From a virus, in the IMG/VR virus record IMGVR_UViG_3300043496_000175, positions 32,001 through 96,000 of that record: DNA of 64,000 nt; one strand, written 5' to 3'. Of this stretch, positions 11,265 to 32,023 are shown in pieces. Position 1 is the stretch's first letter. Each line of letters starts with the position of its first letter. The notes beneath the pieces were generated by a model. The model searched no databases. It was not told where the DNA came from and worked only from the letters and a program-made list of their open reading frames with translations. Both the position numbers and the translations under genes were made by a program.

Positions 11265-11726
11265 ATGGCGAGTAAGACGTTCCGCGTCGCAGTGCAGACG
11301 GAGAGAATCAGCTTCACGCTGGAGTACCTGCAGGGCGGCAAGCCCGCCAGCAAGGTGTTCAACTGCCGCCCCACCGTTCCGGTCGGGCTGATCCTGCAGT
11401 TCGCGGACATCGGCAGCATGAAGGACGAAGACGAATCGTCCGGTGCTGTGGCGATCGACATGATCAAGCAGCTCTACCAGGCCGCGATCGTGCCGGAAGA
11501 GTTCCCGGCGTTCGAGGCACTTCTCGATGATCCCGACGCGGGCATCACCGTAGACATGTACTCCGAGATCGCTGGGTGGTTGGCCGGTGAGTACACGGCC
11601 CGCCCTACTGGAGAGAACTCGGAAAGTTCGCGACCAGCTTCCTCGTCTGGGACCGACTCGACGGTTGGTGCCTCTCCCGTGGTATTGAGCTACTCGAAGT
11701 CGGTGCCAGTAGAGGCTTCGGCCTGA
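11265..11726 (+). CDS. tail assembly chaperone
   Basis: Upstream of tape measure; WLAGEYTARPT motif. Confidence 0.75.
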   Translation: MASKTFRVAVQTERISFTLEYLQGGKPASKVFNCRPTVPVGLILQFADIGSMKDEDESSGAVAIDMIKQLYQAAIVPEEFPAFEALLDDPDAGITVDMYSEIAGWLAGEYTARPTGENSESSRPASSSGTDSTVGASPVVLSYSKSVPVEASA

Positions 11727-11893
11727 TCGAATACTGGATGGAAGACACCGGTGCGATCAGCAAGGAAGAGCACGAAGCCAGGGAGAACTTCCGTACTTCT
11801 CTGGTGAGATTGGGTAAGCAGGTCACCGACCAGCAAGAGGGCAGGGGTCCAGACCTTTCGATGGTCCCACCGCATTTGGTGGGGAAGCGATAG
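11603..11893 (+). CDS. tail assembly chaperone, -1 frame extension
   Basis: Open -1 frame from 11591 to TAG 11891-93: PYWRELGKF...WDRLDGWCLSRGIELL...HLVGKR. Confidence 0.6.
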   Translation, partial: PYWRELGKFATSFLVWDRLDGWCLSRGIELLEVGASRGFGLIEYWMEDTGAISKEEHEARENFRTSLVRLGKQVTDQQEGRGPDLSMVPPHLVGKR

Positions 11894-11908: not shown

Positions 11909-14900
11909 ATGGTGGTCGTCGGAGAAGCGGTAGTTCGCCTTCGGGTGATCAGTGACCGCCTTGCCTCTGACATCCGCGAGGCCGTCAAAAAGGGCCTCTC
12001 CGACGCCAACGCCGACATCGATGCCGAAGGTGAAAAGGCCGGTGACTCCTTCGGTGAAGGCGTCAAGAAGGGCATCCGCAAGCAGACCAAGAAAATCGGC
12101 AAGGAGATCGAGCTTACGGCTCGACGCTTCACGGCCGACGCCAGCGGTGTCATCGATGATGAGGGTGACCGGCTGGGCCGCCAGTTCACCACCTCCATCA
12201 GCAAGGGCCTGTCTGATAGCGGTGGCTGGGCGGAAGTAGTTCGAGTCACCCAGGAGAACTTCGAGCGGGTCTCCGAGAATGTCCGGACCGTCGGGGAAGA
12301 CGCCGGGAAGTCCTACACCGACGGCGTCCGACGGCAGCTCACCGCCGGGATGAAGGAGATCGGTCCCGGCATTCAGGACGATGTTCGCCGCGCGTTCCAC
12401 ATGCGCCCCGGGGACATCGATGACGACGGCGAGATAGCCGCACAAGGCTTCGGGGACGGGATCGACAAGGGTCTCCGAAGCCGGTTCGCCAAGGTTCGGC
12501 AGTCCGTGGATGACATGGCCAATGACATGGCCTCGCGTCTCGGCAATAACTACAGGTCCTTCCAGGACTTCGGTTCAAAAGCTGCCACCAATGTCAGGGA
12601 CTCCTTCAGGAATCAAATGAAGGAAGTCCGGCAGTCCATCAAGGACGAGTTCACCGGCATTACTCGTAACCTCCGGTTGGGGCTTCCAGACTTCGATCGA
12701 GTTGGACGGGAAGCAGGGGAAGCAACTACCCGGGGTGTCCGCCGGGGCTTGCTGAGAGACCGCGCCACCATGTTCAAGGCCTTCTCCGGTCTTGGTGGCG
12801 ACTTCATGCGGCACTTCAACTTGGGTATCGGCGCGGCCCGTATGGGTCCGGCCATCATCTCCCTGGTCGCCCTCGCTGCCCCCTCGGTGCTGTCCGCCGC
12901 TGCCGGTCTGGCCACCGCGCTCGGTGCCCAGCTCGTCTCTGGTATCGCTGCTCTTGGTCCGGCAGTAGCAGGAGCCGGAGGTGTAGCGGCAGCAGGATTG
13001 GCCACTCTGGCATTGAACGTCGGCTTGGTGATGGCTGCATTCAAGGCCGGGAACCCTGAGATCGATGCGGCCACAGAGAAACTCAAAGGTCTTGGAAAAG
13101 TCCTGGGGACTCCGATCGCCAACGGCATGGCGAAGGGATTCACCTCCTTTGTCGATGATCTCGGATCCGTTCTTCCACAGATCAACGACCTGCTGGCCGA
13201 GACTGGCGCGGCGTTCGGCAGAGTCTTCACCAAACTCGGTGAGACGATCAAGAGCGGTGACAACCTGGATCGGATCAGAGGGATCCTGGCCACCAACAAC
13301 TCGTTCATCGACAAGTTCGGTGACGGTCTGGCTGGTCTCACCACTTCCTTCCTGATTCTGTGGGACGCGGCGAAGCCGTTTATCGATGCCATCGGCAACG
13401 CCATTGCACAGTTCGGGACCTGGGCTCAGGCCACGTTAGAGGCAAAGGAAGCCAACGGGGAACTGGCCTCCTTCATGGAGACCACCCTGGCCCGCTTCAA
13501 GGAGGTTGCCAGCTCCATCGGAGACGTGCTCGTCGGTCTCTACAACATCGGCAAAGCCGCTGAGCCGTTCGGCCGGTCCATGGGGGATCTCAGCGAAAAG
13601 TTCCGCGCCTGGACGGAGAGTGATACCGGTCAAGAGAAGATGACCAAGTTCTTCGAGAAGGCACACATCCTGGCCGGTGGCCTGGCAGACATGTTCTCCG
13701 GCATCGGCAGTGCATTCGCCAACGCCTTCATCAACATTGATCCCGGGCCGATCCTTGAAGTCTTCCGCATCATCGGGGACAAGATGGCCCCAGCACTGGC
13801 GGAGCTGTGGAACCAGGTGCAGTCCGGGGCTGGTCAGAACTTGGTCAAGATCTTCGATAACCTCGCCACCGCGCTGCAAAAGATCGCTGACAACGGCAGT
13901 TTCGAGATCATCGCCAAGTTCATCTCGGACATGCTGGTCAAGATCAGCGAGTTCATTGCCTCCGACTTTGGAGCCACCATCGCTGGCTGGCTGATCCCAC
14001 TGACGCTGTTTGGCGGGCTGTTCACCAGCCTCATCGGACCGATCACCACCGTGCTCGGACTGTTGTCTGGTCCGGCCTTGGCGGTGGCTGCCGTCATCGC
14101 TGCCATTGCCGGGTTCTTCGTGTTGGTGTGGACGCAGTCCGAAGCCTTCCGGACCTCGATCGAAGGACTGGTCACCACCCTCGGTGGCACCTTCTCCAGC
14201 ATCTGGGACGAGATATGGCCCAAGGTGCAGCGGCTGTGGGAAGTGGTTGTCAAGCTGGCGCAGGCGGTGGGTGATCGGCTCGGTCCAGTGATCGAGTTCC
14301 TGACCCCGATCATCGCTGCTGCGTTCGAGACCCTTGGCACCATCTTCGGTTTCATCATCGACCACGTCACCGAAGTGATCGACTTCGTCGCCAACATCCT
14401 CAATGGGGATTGGGCAGCAGCTTGGGACAACGTCGTCGCGATCGTGCAGAACGTCTGGGACCTGCTGGTGGACCTGTTCGGTGACATCATCGCCGGGATC
14501 GGTGAATGGTTCGGCAAGATCCCAGAGGTTCTCGGCGGGGTTTGGGAGCGGATCGAGGACGGGGCGGTCAAGGCTTGGGAAGACTTGTTGACTTGGCTTG
14601 AGGGGATCTGGAACGACATCGTTGCAGCAGCAACACAGATCTGGAGTAATATCACTGGCTTCTTCTCAGGCATCTGGAACGACATTGTTGTTGCAGCAGA
14701 ACAAGTTTGGACCAACATCACTGACTCCTTCTCCAAGGGCTGGGAAGGATTGAAGTCGTTCTTCTCCACTTTGGGGGGAGAGTTGCGGAAGATCTGGGAT
14801 GTGATCTGGGCATTCGCTGTATTGCCGTTGGAGATCACCTGGAACCTGATCATGCTGATCTGGAACGGGATCAAGGACGGCCTGTTCGAGGCGTGGAACT

Positions 14901-16243
14901 GGATCAAGACCAAGGCCGAAGAGATCTGGAACGGGATCAAGGACTTCTTCGGCGGCATCTGGAACGGTGTCTCTGAAGCAGCCACTGAGGCCTGGGACAT
15001 CATCACCACTGAGCTGTCCGAGAAGTGGGAGGGTGTCAAGACCAAGGCGTCGGAGATCTGGAATGGGATCACCGAGTTCTTCTCTGGTATCTGGGATGGC
15101 ATTGCCACCAAGGCATCTGAGGTGTGGGAGACCGTCTCCACCTTCCTGTCGGAGAAGTGGGAGAGTATCCGTCTCGCGGCCGAGACAGCCTGGAACACCA
15201 TCACCACGTTCTTCGCCGGTATCTGGGACGGTATCTCTGCCAAGGCCAGTGAGGTGTGGGACACGATCACCACCTTCCTCAGTGAGAAGTGGGAAGGGAT
15301 CAGGGTTGCCGCTGAAACGGTCTGGAACACTGTCTCAACCTTCTTCACCACCAAGTGGAACGAGATCTCAGCTACCTTCCATTCGATCGTTGATCCCCTG
15401 GTTGATTGGCTTGGGCAGCGGTGGAACGACATCAAGGCTGCAGCGGAGACAGTCTGGAACAACATTTCGTCGTTCTTCTCGACCAAGTGGACTGAGATCA
15501 CCAACATCTTCCACACTGCAGTGGAAGCGGTGAAACAATGGCTCTCTGATCGCTGGGAAGACATCAAGAGCGCTGCGCAGACGGCGTGGGACACTCTTTC
15601 TGGTCTTGCACGTACAGCCTGGGAGAACGTCAGTAAGGCCATTCATGAGGTTGTGGATCCGATTCTCGGATGGCTGTCCGAGCGTTGGGAAGACATCAAG
15701 AGCGCCGTCACCACAGCGTTCGATGCTCTTGCTGGCCCGGTACGTGCTGCGTGGGACGCGGTTTACAGTGCCATCGTGGAGCCAGTTGTCAACGCTTTCA
15801 CTACTTTGAACGGGTGGATCACTAGCATCAAGGAACTGATCCAAGGAGCTTGGGACTTCGTCACCGGCAAGGTGGACGACATCAACGCCAAGATCGGTGA
15901 GGCTGCCACAGCGCAAGCTGAGTTCAACGCTGCGCACCCCGGAGGAGACGCTGGTATCTTCGCACCAGCCGCTGCCGAAGGCGGCATCCTCCGCCCAACG
16001 CCGGGTGGACAGATGGTGCGCGTGGCGGAGGCCGGGCAGGCCGAACGTATCGAGCCACTGGATGCCACCGGCCTGTCGCAGCGTGACCACGCCATCATCG
16101 AGAAACTCAGCGGAGCTGTCGGCGGCGGCAACACCATCATCGTCAAGATCGGGGAGACCGAGCTGACTCAGATCGTTGACACCCGCGTCGTCCGAAACAA
16201 TGAGCGCACGGGCAGAAGCCTGCGGAACGGAGTGCGGGTCTGA
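11909..16243 (+). CDS. tape measure protein
   Basis: 1444 aa, hydrophobic segments, Trp-periodic (~11/22 aa) repeats. Confidence 0.95.
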   Translation: MVVVGEAVVRLRVISDRLASDIREAVKKGLSDANADIDAEGEKAGDSFGEGVKKGIRKQTKKIGKEIELTARRFTADASGVIDDEGDRLGRQFTTSISKGLSDSGGWAEVVRVTQENFERVSENVRTVGEDAGKSYTDGVRRQLTAGMKEIGPGIQDDVRRAFHMRPGDIDDDGEIAAQGFGDGIDKGLRSRFAKVRQSVDDMANDMASRLGNNYRSFQDFGSKAATNVRDSFRNQMKEVRQSIKDEFTGITRNLRLGLPDFDRVGREAGEATTRGVRRGLLRDRATMFKAFSGLGGDFMRHFNLGIGAARMGPAIISLVALAAPSVLSAAAGLATALGAQLVSGIAALGPAVAGAGGVAAAGLATLALNVGLVMAAFKAGNPEIDAATEKLKGLGKVLGTPIANGMAKGFTSFVDDLGSVLPQINDLLAETGAAFGRVFTKLGETIKSGDNLDRIRGILATNNSFIDKFGDGLAGLTTSFLILWDAAKPFIDAIGNAIAQFGTWAQATLEAKEANGELASFMETTLARFKEVASSIGDVLVGLYNIGKAAEPFGRSMGDLSEKFRAWTESDTGQEKMTKFFEKAHILAGGLADMFSGIGSAFANAFINIDPGPILEVFRIIGDKMAPALAELWNQVQSGAGQNLVKIFDNLATALQKIADNGSFEIIAKFISDMLVKISEFIASDFGATIAGWLIPLTLFGGLFTSLIGPITTVLGLLSGPALAVAAVIAAIAGFFVLVWTQSEAFRTSIEGLVTTLGGTFSSIWDEIWPKVQRLWEVVVKLAQAVGDRLGPVIEFLTPIIAAAFETLGTIFGFIIDHVTEVIDFVANILNGDWAAAWDNVVAIVQNVWDLLVDLFGDIIAGIGEWFGKIPEVLGGVWERIEDGAVKAWEDLLTWLEGIWNDIVAAATQIWSNITGFFSGIWNDIVVAAEQVWTNITDSFSKGWEGLKSFFSTLGGELRKIWDVIWAFAVLPLEITWNLIMLIWNGIKDGLFEAWNWIKTKAEEIWNGIKDFFGGIWNGVSEAATEAWDIITTELSEKWEGVKTKASEIWNGITEFFSGIWDGIATKASEVWETVSTFLSEKWESIRLAAETAWNTITTFFAGIWDGISAKASEVWDTITTFLSEKWEGIRVAAETVWNTVSTFFTTKWNEISATFHSIVDPLVDWLGQRWNDIKAAAETVWNNISSFFSTKWTEITNIFHTAVEAVKQWLSDRWEDIKSAAQTAWDTLSGLARTAWENVSKAIHEVVDPILGWLSERWEDIKSAVTTAFDALAGPVRAAWDAVYSAIVEPVVNAFTTLNGWITSIKELIQGAWDFVTGKVDDINAKIGEAATAQAEFNAAHPGGDAGIFAPAAAEGGILRPTPGGQMVRVAEAGQAERIEPLDATGLSQRDHAIIEKLSGAVGGGNTIIVKIGETELTQIVDTRVVRNNERTGRSLRNGVRV

Positions 16244-21168: not shown

Positions 21169-21762
21169 ATGGGCCGCATACGACGCTTCATTTTCGGCCA
21201 GCCGGGGTGGTCCGACTACCTCTTCCAGATACCTCCTAAGCAACCGGACGCCAGAGCCGTTTACCTCGCCGGGACTGGTTTGATCACCGCGATCCGGGGT
21301 GCGCAGACGGTGTGGGGCCAACCACCGCAAGCCTGGCTGTTTGTAGAACTTGGCTCGGTGTTCGTGCTGTTCTGGGGATGGGTCTGGATTGCGGTAGGTG
21401 TCATCACTCTTTTGGTGGCTGCCACGGGGCACCGACACCCCGACTGGGATCGACTCAGTGCATTCAGCATGCTGATGCTCTGGTTCGTCTGGGGTCTGAT
21501 CTACCTAGTTAGCGCATGGTTGGCTCCAACGAGTGACCGAAGGCTCATTGACCTGTATGCCGGTCTCGGGTTAATTTTCACGGGAATCATTCTGTCAGCC
21601 GGTGTTATCCAGGGCCTACGGAAGACTCACGAGATCTACCTGCGAGAGCAGTCCGAGAAGGCCCGGCGGGATCTTGAAGTCACTCTCATCGAGGTGACCA
21701 AGGAGAACGAGAGGCTCCGCTTGGACTGTGAGCACCTACGCAGGCCGGAGGTCGAGCTGTGA
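21169..21762 (+). CDS. multi-pass membrane protein (holin candidate)
   Basis: Four hydrophobic segments upstream of endolysin; AAGGAG RBS. Confidence 0.6.
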   Translation: MGRIRRFIFGQPGWSDYLFQIPPKQPDARAVYLAGTGLITAIRGAQTVWGQPPQAWLFVELGSVFVLFWGWVWIAVGVITLLVAATGHRHPDWDRLSAFSMLMLWFVWGLIYLVSAWLAPTSDRRLIDLYAGLGLIFTGIILSAGVIQGLRKTHEIYLREQSEKARRDLEVTLIEVTKENERLRLDCEHLRRPEVEL

Positions 21763-22232
21763 CCTTTGAACAGGCAATCGCGATCATCGTCGTCGCCATC
21801 ATCACGGCGGCGGGGAGTATCTACGCAGCACGGAAGTCAGCGAAAAACGACCAGAACCGGATCAACCAGGCCATGGTCACGGTGCTCGGGGTGGAGCGCG
21901 AAAAGATCGCGGCGGAACTGGATCGGGCAACCATCCGGACCAACGCTACGAATGAGCAGTTGGAAAAGGTGGGGACCGACTTGAGAGCTGCGAAAGAAGA
22001 GTTGACCGAAGTCAGGATCACTCACAGGGAAGCCATAGCCGAGAAGGACGCCACGATCAGGGAACGTGACGCTACGATCCGGGAGGTACAGGCTCGTACC
22101 ATCGAGCTGGAAGCCATGTTGAACGCCTGCCGAACCGAGCTGGGACAGGTGCGTGCAGAGCTGCAGAACGCCTTGACGTTGATCCACCAGCAGGCGCAGC
22201 AGCTTCAAACGCAAAGGAACGGCCAGTCCTAG
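21759..22232 (+). CDS. membrane-anchored coiled-coil protein (lysis module)
   Basis: N-terminal TM + heptad-rich C-terminus; GTGA coupling. Confidence 0.65.
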   Translation: MTFEQAIAIIVVAIITAAGSIYAARKSAKNDQNRINQAMVTVLGVEREKIAAELDRATIRTNATNEQLEKVGTDLRAAKEELTEVRITHREAIAEKDATIRERDATIREVQARTIELEAMLNACRTELGQVRAELQNALTLIHQQAQQLQTQRNGQS

Positions 22233-22247
22233 CCAGGAGGCTCCGTA

Positions 22248-23378
22248 GTGTCTCTCGACCAGTGGCCAGCAGCGTTCAAAGCTGCTGGCCTTTCCGTACA
22301 GCTACACAACGGGTTCCCCAACACATCCAAACCGCAGGGCTCACTGAACAGCCCGCTGATGTCCTTGTATGTCCACCATGACGCCACCCCGGCTGGGCCG
22401 ACGCCCGGCGCGTTGAACTGGATCATTGACTCCTACAATTCCGGTTCTCCCAGCGCCCAGCTTTGGCTGGACACCTCGGGTGTCTGGCACTTCTGCGGAG
22501 CTGGAGTGGCCTCCCACGCCGGGGTGGTCCGGGGTGGGCTCACCAACCGGAACTCGGTGGGTGTGGAGACGGATCACACCGTCAACGAGTTGTACCCAGC
22601 ACCCATGATGTCCAGCCTACTCAAAGGCTGTGCAGTGGCTTGCAAGGTGGAGAAGCGGCAGGCGGATTTCATCACCTTCCACAAGATCGAAGCGTCTCCG
22701 CGAGGCCGCAAGCAGGACCCATGGCTCACCCAGGCCAGCAACACCCAAGCCAACTGGGACAAGGAGCTGGCCGATTTCCGCGCCAAGGTTCAGATCCTGA
22801 TCAGTACCGGCGGCAACATAGACATTCCCACTGGCCCCAACATCCCATCTGAAGGAGATTGGTTCGACATGGCAACGGAAGCGGATCTGGAACGGGTCGT
22901 TGACAAAAAGCTCCAGCAGTATGCTGCGCACTACGGTCGTGAGTCAGTCAAGGCACTGATCAATCAGCAGACGAACGCTACTGGACAGCCGGATTACTAC
23001 CCCTACGGTGACACCGCGAAGACGCAGATCGCTGACACAGTGTGGAACAAGGGCATTAAGTCTTCCGTGGACGGACAGACCTATTCGGCGGCCGGATACC
23101 TGGCGTCGAGTGATTGGCGCATCCAGGATATTCAGTCGCGGATGAGCACATTGTCCCGGGCTGAGTTGAATGAGGTTGCTCGGTGGATCGTTGCAGAACT
23201 TGATGGCGATGCTTCCACCACTACCACTGCGACGTACACCGTCAAGTCCGGCGACACCTTCACCAGCATCGCCACAGCTCACGGCATCAGCGTGGACCAG
23301 CTCAAGGAGCTGAATCCGAAGGTCACCGACATCAACAACATCAACCCTGGGGATGTTTTGAACGTCCCAAAAGCGTAG
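22248..23378 (+). CDS. endolysin, amidase_2 + LysM
   Basis: VHHDA, SHAG, NSVGVE, FHK..RKQDP zinc-amidase motifs; C-terminal YTVKSGDT..IATAHG..LNP LysM. Confidence 0.9.
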   Translation: MSLDQWPAAFKAAGLSVQLHNGFPNTSKPQGSLNSPLMSLYVHHDATPAGPTPGALNWIIDSYNSGSPSAQLWLDTSGVWHFCGAGVASHAGVVRGGLTNRNSVGVETDHTVNELYPAPMMSSLLKGCAVACKVEKRQADFITFHKIEASPRGRKQDPWLTQASNTQANWDKELADFRAKVQILISTGGNIDIPTGPNIPSEGDWFDMATEADLERVVDKKLQQYAAHYGRESVKALINQQTNATGQPDYYPYGDTAKTQIADTVWNKGIKSSVDGQTYSAAGYLASSDWRIQDIQSRMSTLSRAELNEVARWIVAELDGDASTTTTATYTVKSGDTFTSIATAHGISVDQLKELNPKVTDINNINPGDVLNVPKA

Positions 23379-23896
23379 AGCCCGCGATCGACAAGCGGGA
23401 CAAGTACCGGGCGCAAGTTGATCAAGCAGTCGAGGACTTCGGAAACCTGCGTCCCACCAAGTGGGGACCTTTGCCCAGGGCCCGCGCCAAGCGGATCTCC
23501 TACCGCACGATCTTCGCAGAGACTGACTGGCGGAACCTGGCGAACGCATCGGTGCCGGAGAGTTTGAACTACCCCAACGATGGGCAAGGCAAGGACAAGG
23601 ACTCAGTCGGGCTCTACCAGCAGCGTGCTCGCTGGTGGGGGACCACGATGGGTTCGATGGATCCGTACATCGCCACCACGCGGTTCCTGGACCGGATGCT
23701 GCAGAACGCGCCGAGCTGGTTCACCACCGATGAAGCGGAGGTAGCTCAGATGGTGCAGGGCTCGCAGTACGACGGCGTTACGATTGATCCCGTCACCCGA
23801 AAGCCTTACCCTTTTGCTCAGAATTACCGCGATCGGGATGCTCAGACGGCGGCGATGGAGCGGGACCTGAGCTACTACGGAAACGGGGGCAAGTAG
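23372..23896 (+). CDS. lysozyme/transglycosylase-like domain, probably reached by -1 frameshift from endolysin (alternative TTG start 23471)
   Basis: AET.WRNLAN..VPESL..DSVGLYQQR..WG..MDP..AQMVQGS motif; frame open through endolysin end; CCCAAAA at 23366-72. Confidence 0.7.
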   Translation, partial: SVEPAIDKRDKYRAQVDQAVEDFGNLRPTKWGPLPRARAKRISYRTIFAETDWRNLANASVPESLNYPNDGQGKDKDSVGLYQQRARWWGTTMGSMDPYIATTRFLDRMLQNAPSWFTTDEAEVAQMVQGSQYDGVTIDPVTRKPYPFAQNYRDRDAQTAAMERDLSYYGNGGK

Positions 23897-24337
23897 GTGC
23901 CCGAGGAAGTACACATCCACGTTCACGTCCACACCGGTGGCACGAGCGAAGAACACACCCAGATCCTGGACGCCGTCCAGGAACTAACAGAAGGAGTCGC
24001 CAGCATGGCAGCAGATCTCTCCGGCCTCACCAATGAGGTATCGGAACAGGAAACCACCGTCGCCGGTGCGGTTGCACTGATCAACGGTTTCGGCGCTCAG
24101 CTCGATGAGCTGCTCCAGCAGGCGGAAGAGGGCCGCGTTGACGTGGCCGCCATCTCCGCTCTCAAGGACCGGCTCGACGCCTCCACCAACTCCCTGGCCG
24201 AGGCCGTTACGGCCAACACCCCGGAGTCCCCGGAGGAGCCGCCGGTTGAGGAACCGCCGGTGGAAGAGCCGCCCGTCGAGGAGCCTCCGGTTGACGAAGA
24301 GCCCGCGCCGCCGGTGGAGGGCAACGTCAACCCGTGA
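23897..24337 (+). CDS. hypothetical coiled-coil protein with EEPPV repeats
   Basis: ORF; alternative ATG at 24005 has AAGGAG RBS. Confidence 0.6.
   Translation: MPEEVHIHVHVHTGGTSEEHTQILDAVQELTEGVASMAADLSGLTNEVSEQETTVAGAVALINGFGAQLDELLQQAEEGRVDVAAISALKDRLDASTNSLAEAVTANTPESPEEPPVEEPPVEEPPVEEPPVDEEPAPPVEGNVNP
24233..24292 (+). repeat. 4x 15-bp imperfect coding tandem repeat (EEPPV)
   Basis: gaggagccgccggtt / gaggaaccgccggtg / gaagagccgcccgtc / gaggagcctccggtt. Confidence 0.85.
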
Positions 24338-31571: not shown

Positions 31572-32023
31572 GCAAGTTGATAGCTGTTACCGGGTACAAG
31601 AACTCGGGCAAGAACGCGGTGTGTGATGTCCTCCGGGACACCTACGGGTTCGAGGTCACTGGCATGGCTGATGCACTCAAGGAGCGATTTCCAGAGATCC
31701 GGCGGCTCCTGCAGAAGGCTGGCACCGAGGGCGGGCGTGACATCTTCGGTCAGGAGATCTGGCCCAAGACCTGGTACAAAAGCGCAAAGGTCTTGCTGGA
31801 GCAGGGCTATGACGTCTGCGTCTCCGACCTCCGGTTCCTGAACGAGGCTGCGTTTGTGCGAGAACTCGGTGGAGAGGTGTGGCGGGTGTACCGGCCAGGC
31901 ACCGACGTCGGAGACAAGCACAAGAGCGAGACCGAGTTGGATTCCATCACGCCAGACCGGGTGATCCAGAACAACGGAAGTCTGGCTGATCTGCACGGAC
32001 TGGTTGTAGGGGCGATGCTATGA
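31568..32023 (+). CDS. deoxynucleoside monophosphate kinase
   Basis: GYKNSGK, RRLLQKAGTE, SDLRFLNEA, HKSE. Confidence 0.85.
   Translation: MSKLIAVTGYKNSGKNAVCDVLRDTYGFEVTGMADALKERFPEIRRLLQKAGTEGGRDIFGQEIWPKTWYKSAKVLLEQGYDVCVSDLRFLNEAAFVRELGGEVWRVYRPGTDVGDKHKSETELDSITPDRVIQNNGSLADLHGLVVGAML

Follow-up and report, generated by a model that had tools for sequence, protein, structure and literature searches.

A Predicted Programmed -1 Frameshift Appending a GH184 Muramidase to the Amidase-LysM Endolysin of a Soil Actinophage Lineage

Introduction

A programmed -1 frameshift at the 3' end of an endolysin gene probably appends a GH184 muramidase to an amidase-LysM lysin in the virus represented by the 107-kb IMG/VR record IMGVR_UViG_3300043496_000175. 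The analysis was carried out on a stretch of 64,000 nucleotides (nt) of this record (positions 32,001 to 96,000), referred to below as the window, and all coordinates are counted from its first letter. The frameshift had been suggested in a first-pass annotation made from the letters of the DNA alone; each computational check that this annotation had proposed favoured it, and the trans-frame protein is a prediction that we consider likely. A broader proposition, which we also favour although with a little less assurance, is that a soil actinophage lineage expresses a second endolysin catalytic domain only or mainly by -1 frameshifting, that it does so with two interchangeable signal types at one codon, namely a strong C_CCA_AAA without obvious structure and a weak C_CCY with a stem-loop 5 nt downstream, and that recoding sets the stoichiometry of the amidase-LysM and amidase-LysM-GH184 proteins.

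According to the proposed mechanism, most ribosomes would read GTC CCA AAA GCG and stop at TAG, releasing an amidase-LysM endolysin of 376 amino acids (aa). A minority would slip back by one base on C_CCA_AAA, with the tRNA-Pro moving from CCA to CCC and the tRNA-Lys from AAA to AAA, and would then read 174 more codons in the -1 frame, giving an amidase-LysM-GH184 protein of 549 aa with the junction ...NVPK-SVEPAIDKRD.... In this way a constant proportion of one-enzyme to two-enzyme lysins would come from a single locus, and LysM would serve as a tether for the muramidase, which itself lacks a wall-binding module. The long form is probably the minor product in the window phage, because the strong heptamer has no demonstrable stimulator. 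That slippage occurs, at what rate, with what contribution from a stimulator in this phage and to what purpose a ratio is kept are all points that we infer.

The Endolysin Gene and Its Putative Slip Site

The features of the locus are listed in Table 1. The endolysin gene is preceded by a strong Shine-Dalgarno (SD) sequence, whose duplex with the 16S tail has an energy of -10.3 kcal/mol as compared with a median of -7.2 for the genes of the window. The N-terminal half of the product matches the endolysin families phrog_880 and phrog_291, and a tblastn search with the endolysin retrieves an annotated N-acetylmuramoyl-L-alanine amidase (1e-9) as well as actinophage lysin A genes. The protein itself has no match to Pfam Amidase_2, even at E <= 5; its homolog P0032 (E 1.3e-59, 50% identity) matches Amidase_2 (PF01510) at E 9.6e-9. 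The Zn-ligand pattern of the amidase half was judged by eye only. At the other end of the protein, the LysM domain reaches 53.7 bits, above the gathering cut-off of 20.9.

The last codons of the gene are GTC (23364-66), CCA (23367-69), AAA (23370-72), GCG (23373-75) and TAG (23376-78), which confirms the earlier claim that a C_CCA_AAA heptamer stands in phase at the end of the 376-aa open reading frame (ORF). The -1 frame, said to be open beyond the heptamer, is indeed open from 23204 up to 23896, where it ends with the TAG at 23894-96, and it reads ...PK SVEPAIDKRDKYRAQVDQAVEDFG...; the two product lengths proposed at the outset, 376 aa and 549 aa (375 + 174), were likewise recovered. CCCAAAA is present in a single copy on either strand of the 64-kb window, and this copy is the slip site. 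In the codon usage of the window, CCA makes up 16% of the Pro codons and AAA 16% of the Lys codons.

Table 1. Features of the endolysin-GH184 locus in the window.
Feature	Position	Strand	Remarks
Shine-Dalgarno sequence AGGAGG	22235..22240	+	7 nt before the endolysin start GTG 22248
0-frame endolysin ORF, 376 aa	22248..23378	+	Amidase_2-like N-terminal domain, linker, C-terminal LysM
LysM domain, residues 330-374	23235..23369	+	Pfam PF01476, E 2e-14; extends to the Pro codon of the slip site
GGGGA, SD-like stretch	23349..23353	+	12 nt 5' of the heptamer
Slippery heptamer C_CCA_AAA	23366..23372	+	In phase with the endolysin frame; V_VVA_AAR class
-1 frame GH184 coding sequence (predicted), 174 codons + TAG	23372..23896	+	Would be entered by re-reading A23372
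0-frame stop TAG	23376..23378	+	One codon past the heptamer
cccgc (23381-85) / gcggg (23395-99) hairpin, N9 loop	23381..23399	+	8 nt past the heptamer
Helix 1 codons, residues 8-26	23393..23449	+	5' of any canonical start; pLDDT (predicted local distance difference test) 89-98; within the 8b2e-aligned core
TTG, first canonical start in the -1 frame	23471..23473	+	Database gene call giving the 141-aa P0001
Glu50 codon	23519..23521	+	Aligned with the catalytic Glu41 of KsGH184 (alignment to 8b2e by hidden Markov model)

Conservation of the Junction

Single-protein scans of viral contigs returned nothing useful, and the DNA of ten distinct relatives, with 54-65% aa identity, was obtained from viral and metagenome contigs by an alignment-based scan. 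This set leaves out the DNA of the database homologs P0005, P0009, P0012 and P0015-P0022; these include a 116-kb contig on which the gene call is shortened in the way seen in the window. The relatives are not independent samples, and the probabilities attached to our readings are rough, with no exact figure given for the conservation of the motif.

In all 11 genomes (the window and the ten relatives), a gene ending in LysM stops at the junction and the GH184 domain comes next in the -1 frame, with a shift-prone motif in phase, 0-1 codon before the 0-frame stop. Gene order, the -1 relation and a shift-prone motif near the stop are kept in 10 of 10 relatives. Three types of junction can be distinguished. 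Type A consists of C_CCA_AAA, 0-1 codon and the stop (window, L004, L025 and L009), and the same heptamer is also kept in the contig of run X6, which belongs to another soil study. Type B reads G_GGC_CCY, 0-1 codon and the stop (L006, L023, L007 and L022), and in type C (A/G)CC_CCT is directly followed by the stop (L024, L005 and L008).

The codons used at these sites are minority codons. In the pooled codon usage of the relatives, Pro is encoded by CCG in 45% of cases, CCC in 25%, CCA in 17% and CCT in 13%, while AAA accounts for 17% of Lys. At the junctions of types B and C, CCY preceded by C is found in seven of seven genomes (six CCT and one CCC) and CCG in none. Synonymous sites nearby are close to saturation (proportion of synonymous differences, pS, 0.57-0.87), and type A nonetheless keeps C CCA AAA in four of four. 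In measurements made in E. coli, few -1 slip motifs are as efficient as the V_VVA_AAR heptamers, and the tetramers that respond to a downstream structure rank as A_AAG > U_UUY > C_CCY > A_AAA, whereas C_CCG and C_CCA barely respond (PMC4066793). From this ranking, taken together with the minority codon use, it follows that the codons chosen at the junction are exactly the shift-prone ones. With CCA AAA kept in four lineages and CCY in seven while the synonymous sites around them are near saturation, the nucleotide conservation of the slip motif exceeds the demands of the protein.

A natural in-frame counterpart of the trans-frame product is known in P0015, a LysM-LysM-GH184 protein. Residues 327-546 of the conceptual 549-aa fusion and residues 86-302 of P0015 are colinear across the junction, with 116 of 221 positions identical and a 1-residue gap at the join.

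The same protein lends some credit to the idea of an assembly or sequencing indel, according to which the true gene would carry AAAAA and encode a plain in-frame amidase-LysM-GH184 endolysin; so do the metagenomic origin of the assembly and the short homopolymer at the site. Against this stands a 106,910-nt contig from the Logan assembly of the probable source run, identical over 23000-23900 at a depth of 22.4 and with no indel, even if that assembly was built from the same reads and is not fully independent, contigs rather than raw reads having been inspected. Moreover, the X6 contig is identical over the 20 nt spanning CCCAAAA GCG TAG and so keeps both heptamer and stop, ten relatives from other samples share the stop and the -1 relation, and a further relative keeps the frame relation while 76 nt replace 82 nt. 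Because the Logan contig, the X6 contig and the ten relatives agree, a sequencing indel is unlikely, and we hold the plain in-frame gene to be very improbable. Transcriptional slippage was discarded too, as the A run is only four long and the C_CCY relatives are without any run.

RNA Structure Downstream of the Putative Slip Site

In the seven genomes with a C_CCY tetramer (types B and C), a stem of 7-11 bp begins exactly 5 nt past the tetramer in every case. This spacing is that of the IS3 test constructs (PMC4066793). The 5' arm is made of GGCCCGG plus 3-4 bp, in codons for G-P-x, and the 3' arm is ...CCGGGCC, in codons for Y-R-A. Compensatory double changes occur in L008 and L009. In L008, ACCCCGG pairs with CCGGGGT, which amounts to two compensatory pairs that also alter amino acids; in L009 the stem is remodelled and still complementary, and L022 has one G-U pair. 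The covariation score is 0.208 as against 0.091 in shuffles, 2 of 500 shuffles reaching it, and the folding z-scores of the C_CCY members go from -0.6 to -4.2. Taken over the 11 sequences, these data are suggestive of a conserved and compensated stem-loop in the C_CCY branch.

The situation in the window is different from what had been proposed. The hairpin at 23381-99 exists, 8 nt past the heptamer as claimed, but its role as a stimulator is not upheld: the 60 nt past the heptamer have a z-score of 0.05 (99 of 200 dinucleotide shuffles fold as well), the minimum-energy fold of these 60 nt omits the hairpin, and it is not conserved in the relatives. The CCCAAAA members have small local hairpins 8-9 nt downstream, in differing registers and no better than shuffles. 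A possible pseudoknot, in which the loop GAUCGAC (23386-92) would pair with GUUGAUC (23416-22) over 7 bp and enclose the region of the 23381-99 hairpin, shows up as a stem in the 60-nt minimum-energy fold, and was rejected as no better than shuffles and not conserved.

The GH184 Domain

The muramidases of family GH184 characterised so far are fungal, namely KsGH184 (8b2e) and TtGH184 (8b2h) (PMC10394673). A profile of the -1 product and its homologs (alignment A1) matches these two PDB entries with E-values of 2.4e-23 and 1.9e-20, respectively. The AlphaFold2 model of the -1 product has a mean pLDDT of 93.3 and gives, in Foldseek, TM-scores of 0.84-0.85 normalised by target length. With VIA-align, the superposition on 8b2e has a Z of 20.4 and a root mean square deviation of 1.9 A with 136 of 141 residues aligned, residues 7-142 of the 8b2e chain corresponding to residues 6-167 of the model. 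Judged by profile and fold, the domain in the -1 frame is a GH184-family muramidase with predicted activity, so that the 'lysozyme-like domain' of the first-pass annotation is both borne out and refined. Glu41 is named as the catalytic residue of KsGH184 (PMC10394673), and its counterpart E50 is invariant in A1. D75 aligns with Asp66 of KsGH184 and is present in the window and in most, not all, members.

The GH184 core starts 5 residues past the slip site, and over the region of helix 1 the motif DKRDxYRxxVDxAV is conserved. These facts bear on the possibility that the domain is translated independently from TTG 23471, as a 141-aa protein, with the 33 upstream codons left untranslated in this phage. 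TTG 23471 is, as stated earlier, the first ATG, GTG or TTG downstream, it is the start of the database call P0001, and GGGGA lies just upstream. However, GGGGA is only 2 nt away, in keeping with the weak and close ribosome-binding site noted before, and TTG is not conserved as a start in the relatives. Changes in the 33 upstream codons are mostly synonymous, so that their protein sequence is conserved, and these codons form helix 1 of the GH184 core with pLDDT above 89. Since the core begins so close to the slip site and TTG 23471 is residue 34, a start there would remove helix 1 (residues 8-26), which is part of the core equivalent to 8b2e, as the initial description had supposed for the first helix. 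Independent initiation at TTG 23471 is, on balance, quite improbable.

Coding constraint was measured upstream of this TTG. Over 18 ungapped codons (DKRD...FG) and all pairs of sequences, pS is 0.66 and the proportion of nonsynonymous differences (pN) is 0.18 in the -1 frame, while in the other two frames pS is ~0.2 and pN ~0.3. In L006, L023 and L007, which have no start of their own (see below), pN is 0.02-0.09 at a pS of ~0.6, and pN/pS in the -1 frame is ~0.03-0.3 over the stretch without a start. Because pS exceeds pN in that frame only, the 99 nt (33 codons) preceding TTG 23471 are protein-coding in the -1 frame, also in the genomes without a start. Furthermore, several homologs of 168-181 aa in a large protein collection span the 33 residues upstream of the TTG position, with the motif DKRDxYRxxVDxAVxxFG in common. 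Many others are called from starts inside or past the DKRD motif, and more than half of the database homologs begin within the conserved helix.

The lack of a start codon of its own might also suggest that the GH184 frame is a decaying, unexpressed remnant of a once-fused or once-separate gene. An intact ORF of 174 codons with an invariant catalytic Glu, under the strong purifying selection just described even in L006, L023 and L007, makes such decay hardly credible.

As regards the wider distribution of the domain, 470 records of Gordonia, Mycobacterium and related phages have a GH184-like domain within their tape-measure proteins, for example that of Gordonia phage Cozz (14073-14459); the annotations of these records do not label it as GH184. 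A blastn search of the locus against isolated phages gave no match, and in no isolated phage was a GH184 gene found next to the endolysin, the domain occurring there only inside tape-measure proteins. Pfam searches on ten more distant GH184-like proteins yielded one informative architecture, that of P0281 (548 aa, metagenomic), in which Peptidase_M23, a GH184-like domain and NlpC/P60 stand in one frame as a three-enzyme wall hydrolase.

Start Codons and Re-Initiation

The frameshift has to be weighed mainly against the production of two polypeptides, with termination at TAG 23376 and coupled, SD-less re-initiation nearby, at ATC 23387 in the window and at GTG or TTG in the relatives; the conserved stem-loop would then gate re-initiation instead of slippage. 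Split lysin A genes are common in actinophages. A canonical start precedes the DKRD motif in 7 of the 11 genomes, where a GTG or TTG either overlaps the stop (TAGTG, GTGA or TTGA, four cases) or follows it by 8-20 nt, and gene callers give stand-alone proteins of 168-181 aa in several relatives.

On the other hand, from the stop to the DKRD...VDxAV helix the remaining four genomes (window, L006, L023 and L007) contain neither ATG nor GTG nor TTG, and thus no canonical start at the right place; in L006, one has to go 44 codons into the conserved domain to meet the next start 3' of the junction. The near-cognate candidates left to them are ATC 23387, the only one in the window and without an SD, a non-conserved ATG or CTG 64 nt upstream within LysM, or none. 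The latter triplets stand in one and the same alignment column, 64 nt 5' of the stop, as ATG in L006 (2941), ATG in L023 (458) and CTG in L007 (410), all in the -1 frame. As a start, this column is neither conserved nor provided with an SD, and these bases are found there because the 0-frame LysM codons for Ala-Trp dictate them. In the other seven genomes, the candidate starts at the junction have SD duplexes of +0.4 to -3.8 kcal/mol, with one at -6.8, as compared with the window-gene median of -7.2. Moreover, even close relatives differ in whether they have a start codon, but all of them have the slip motif. Finally, re-initiation leaves unexplained both the rare codons CCA AAA and CCT and the fixed spacing of 5 nt to the stem. 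In some relatives, coupled translation from GTG or TTG may play a part; as the general account of the locus, we regard re-initiation as unlikely.

The programmed frameshift is our preferred explanation, and several observations count against it. The 7 of 11 genomes with a GTG or TTG overlapping or near the stop make coupled separate expression possible, maybe as the ancestral mode. The conserved end of LysM and a G+C-rich codon usage account in part for the Pro codon and the C before it, and the rules for slip motifs derive from E. coli, not from an actinobacterium. The CCCAAAA group, which includes the window, has no downstream structure that is above chance or conserved in position, and because of this lack in the window the efficiency of frameshifting there may be low. 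For C_CCA_AAA lacking a stimulator, all that is known from E. coli is an efficiency above 0.1% (PMC4066793). A full-length fusion of ~550 aa was not found among the GH184 or endolysin homologs, with protein searches that are insensitive, and no RNA run was found among those listed as containing the stretch.

Genomic Context

The portal protein of the 107-kb record shares ~39% identity with its counterparts in large actinophages such as Gordonia GMA2 and Actinomycetia phage DSL-LC01, and a scan of genome contigs gave matches to Actinomycetota only, all of them distant. Directly 5' of the endolysin gene, two membrane-protein genes (21169-22232) are candidate holin or lysis-accessory genes, one encoding 197 aa with several hydrophobic segments and the other 157 aa with a single hydrophobic helix at the N-terminus and then a long coiled coil. 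On the other side, the gene that comes after the GH184 frame (23897-24337) lies inside the lysis cassette, and its GTG, with an SD-like GGGGG upstream, abuts the TAG stop (TAGGTG). Its product of 146 aa is His-rich at the N-terminus, resembles a coiled coil in the middle and contains four EEPPV repeats.

Elsewhere in the window, a likely tail-assembly-chaperone gene (11265-11891) is located just 5' of the gene (11909-16243) for a tape-measure protein of 1444 aa. Between 11591 and 11891 the -1 frame of the chaperone gene is open, and no canonical in-phase X_XXY_YYZ heptamer was found in this gene, which made it uninformative as an internal positive control; a G/GT frameshift, if present, would need a non-standard site.

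Comparison With Known Systems

Tail-assembly chaperones and a few capsid genes are the established cases of programmed frameshifting in phages, and we know of no lysis enzyme with a demonstrated programmed frameshift. Endolysin genes with two products are known, in which the second product arises by in-frame internal initiation, as in Ms6 LysA, CD27L/CTP1L and Lys170. These systems resemble the present locus in that one lysis gene gives two related polypeptides sharing a module; there, however, a second start leads to a shorter product, whereas here recoding at the 3' end would lead to a longer, two-enzyme one. In E. coli dnaX, as proposed here, the relative amounts of two forms (tau and gamma) of a single enzyme subunit are determined by a -1 frameshift. 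The dnaX shift truncates while the present one would extend, and the strong stem-loop of dnaX contrasts with a window in which none is above chance. An SD-like element stands ~10 nt upstream of the dnaX heptamer, and by analogy the GGGGA upstream of the window heptamer (Table 1) is a possible stimulator.

Among phage frameshifts, a close parallel is the conserved -1 shift in the tail-assembly chaperones of double-stranded DNA phages, lambda gpG/gpGT (Xu, Hendrix and Duda 2004, cited in PMC5506516). The predicted case shares with that system a phage late gene, an X_XXY_YYZ motif near the end of the upstream ORF, a site conserved across divergent phages, and a short major product accompanied in a fixed ratio by a minor one extended at the C-terminus. 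The two differ in that the protein here is a lysis enzyme and not a virion-assembly chaperone, the extension would be a complete catalytic domain, and the motif type changes between branches of the family (heptamer versus tetramer with stem-loop).

The OrfA-OrfAB products of IS3 and IS911 offer another parallel, since there too a catalytic domain is gained through a -1 shift immediately ahead of the 0-frame stop, and Z_ZZN tetramers rely on a structure ~5 nt downstream, which is the geometry of the seven C_CCY relatives (PMC4066793; PMC13313380). The usual motif of these elements is A_AAA_AAG or A_AAG, accompanied by a pseudoknot or three-way junction (PMC4066793; PMC13313380), whereas the signals described here are C_CCY with a simple stem-loop, or C_CCA_AAA without clear structure, and the product is a lysin. 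With regard to the appended domain, TtGH184 likewise has a wall-binding module preceding the GH184 core and conserves the catalytic Glu, but in the fungal enzymes the modules are SH3-like and joined in frame (PMC10394673), while the proposed fusion has LysM as its module and would be joined through recoding.

In the literature on frameshifts near lysis genes, only in-silico remarks and no experimentally shown case were found. Such proposals concern the endolysin/internal virion protein of Alteromonas virus H4/4 (PMC5658483) and the Streptomyces BI phages (PMC9671017). Both likewise place a -1 shift at the end of a wall hydrolase gene; they differ from the present case in phage group, host, domains and signals. 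What would be new in the present case is a known recoding mechanism in a new class of genes, with two signal designs at one homologous site.

Implications

If the frameshift is true, gene callers systematically truncate or mis-start the GH184 gene. The composition of the endolysin would be tuned at the level of translation, one-enzyme and two-enzyme lysins being made in a fixed ratio with one shared wall-binding module. The family would also provide a natural comparison of two frameshift signals at one homologous site, in high-G+C hosts whose slip rules are poorly measured. Finally, bacterial and phage members with a defined lytic role would join GH184, a family so far characterised only in fungi.

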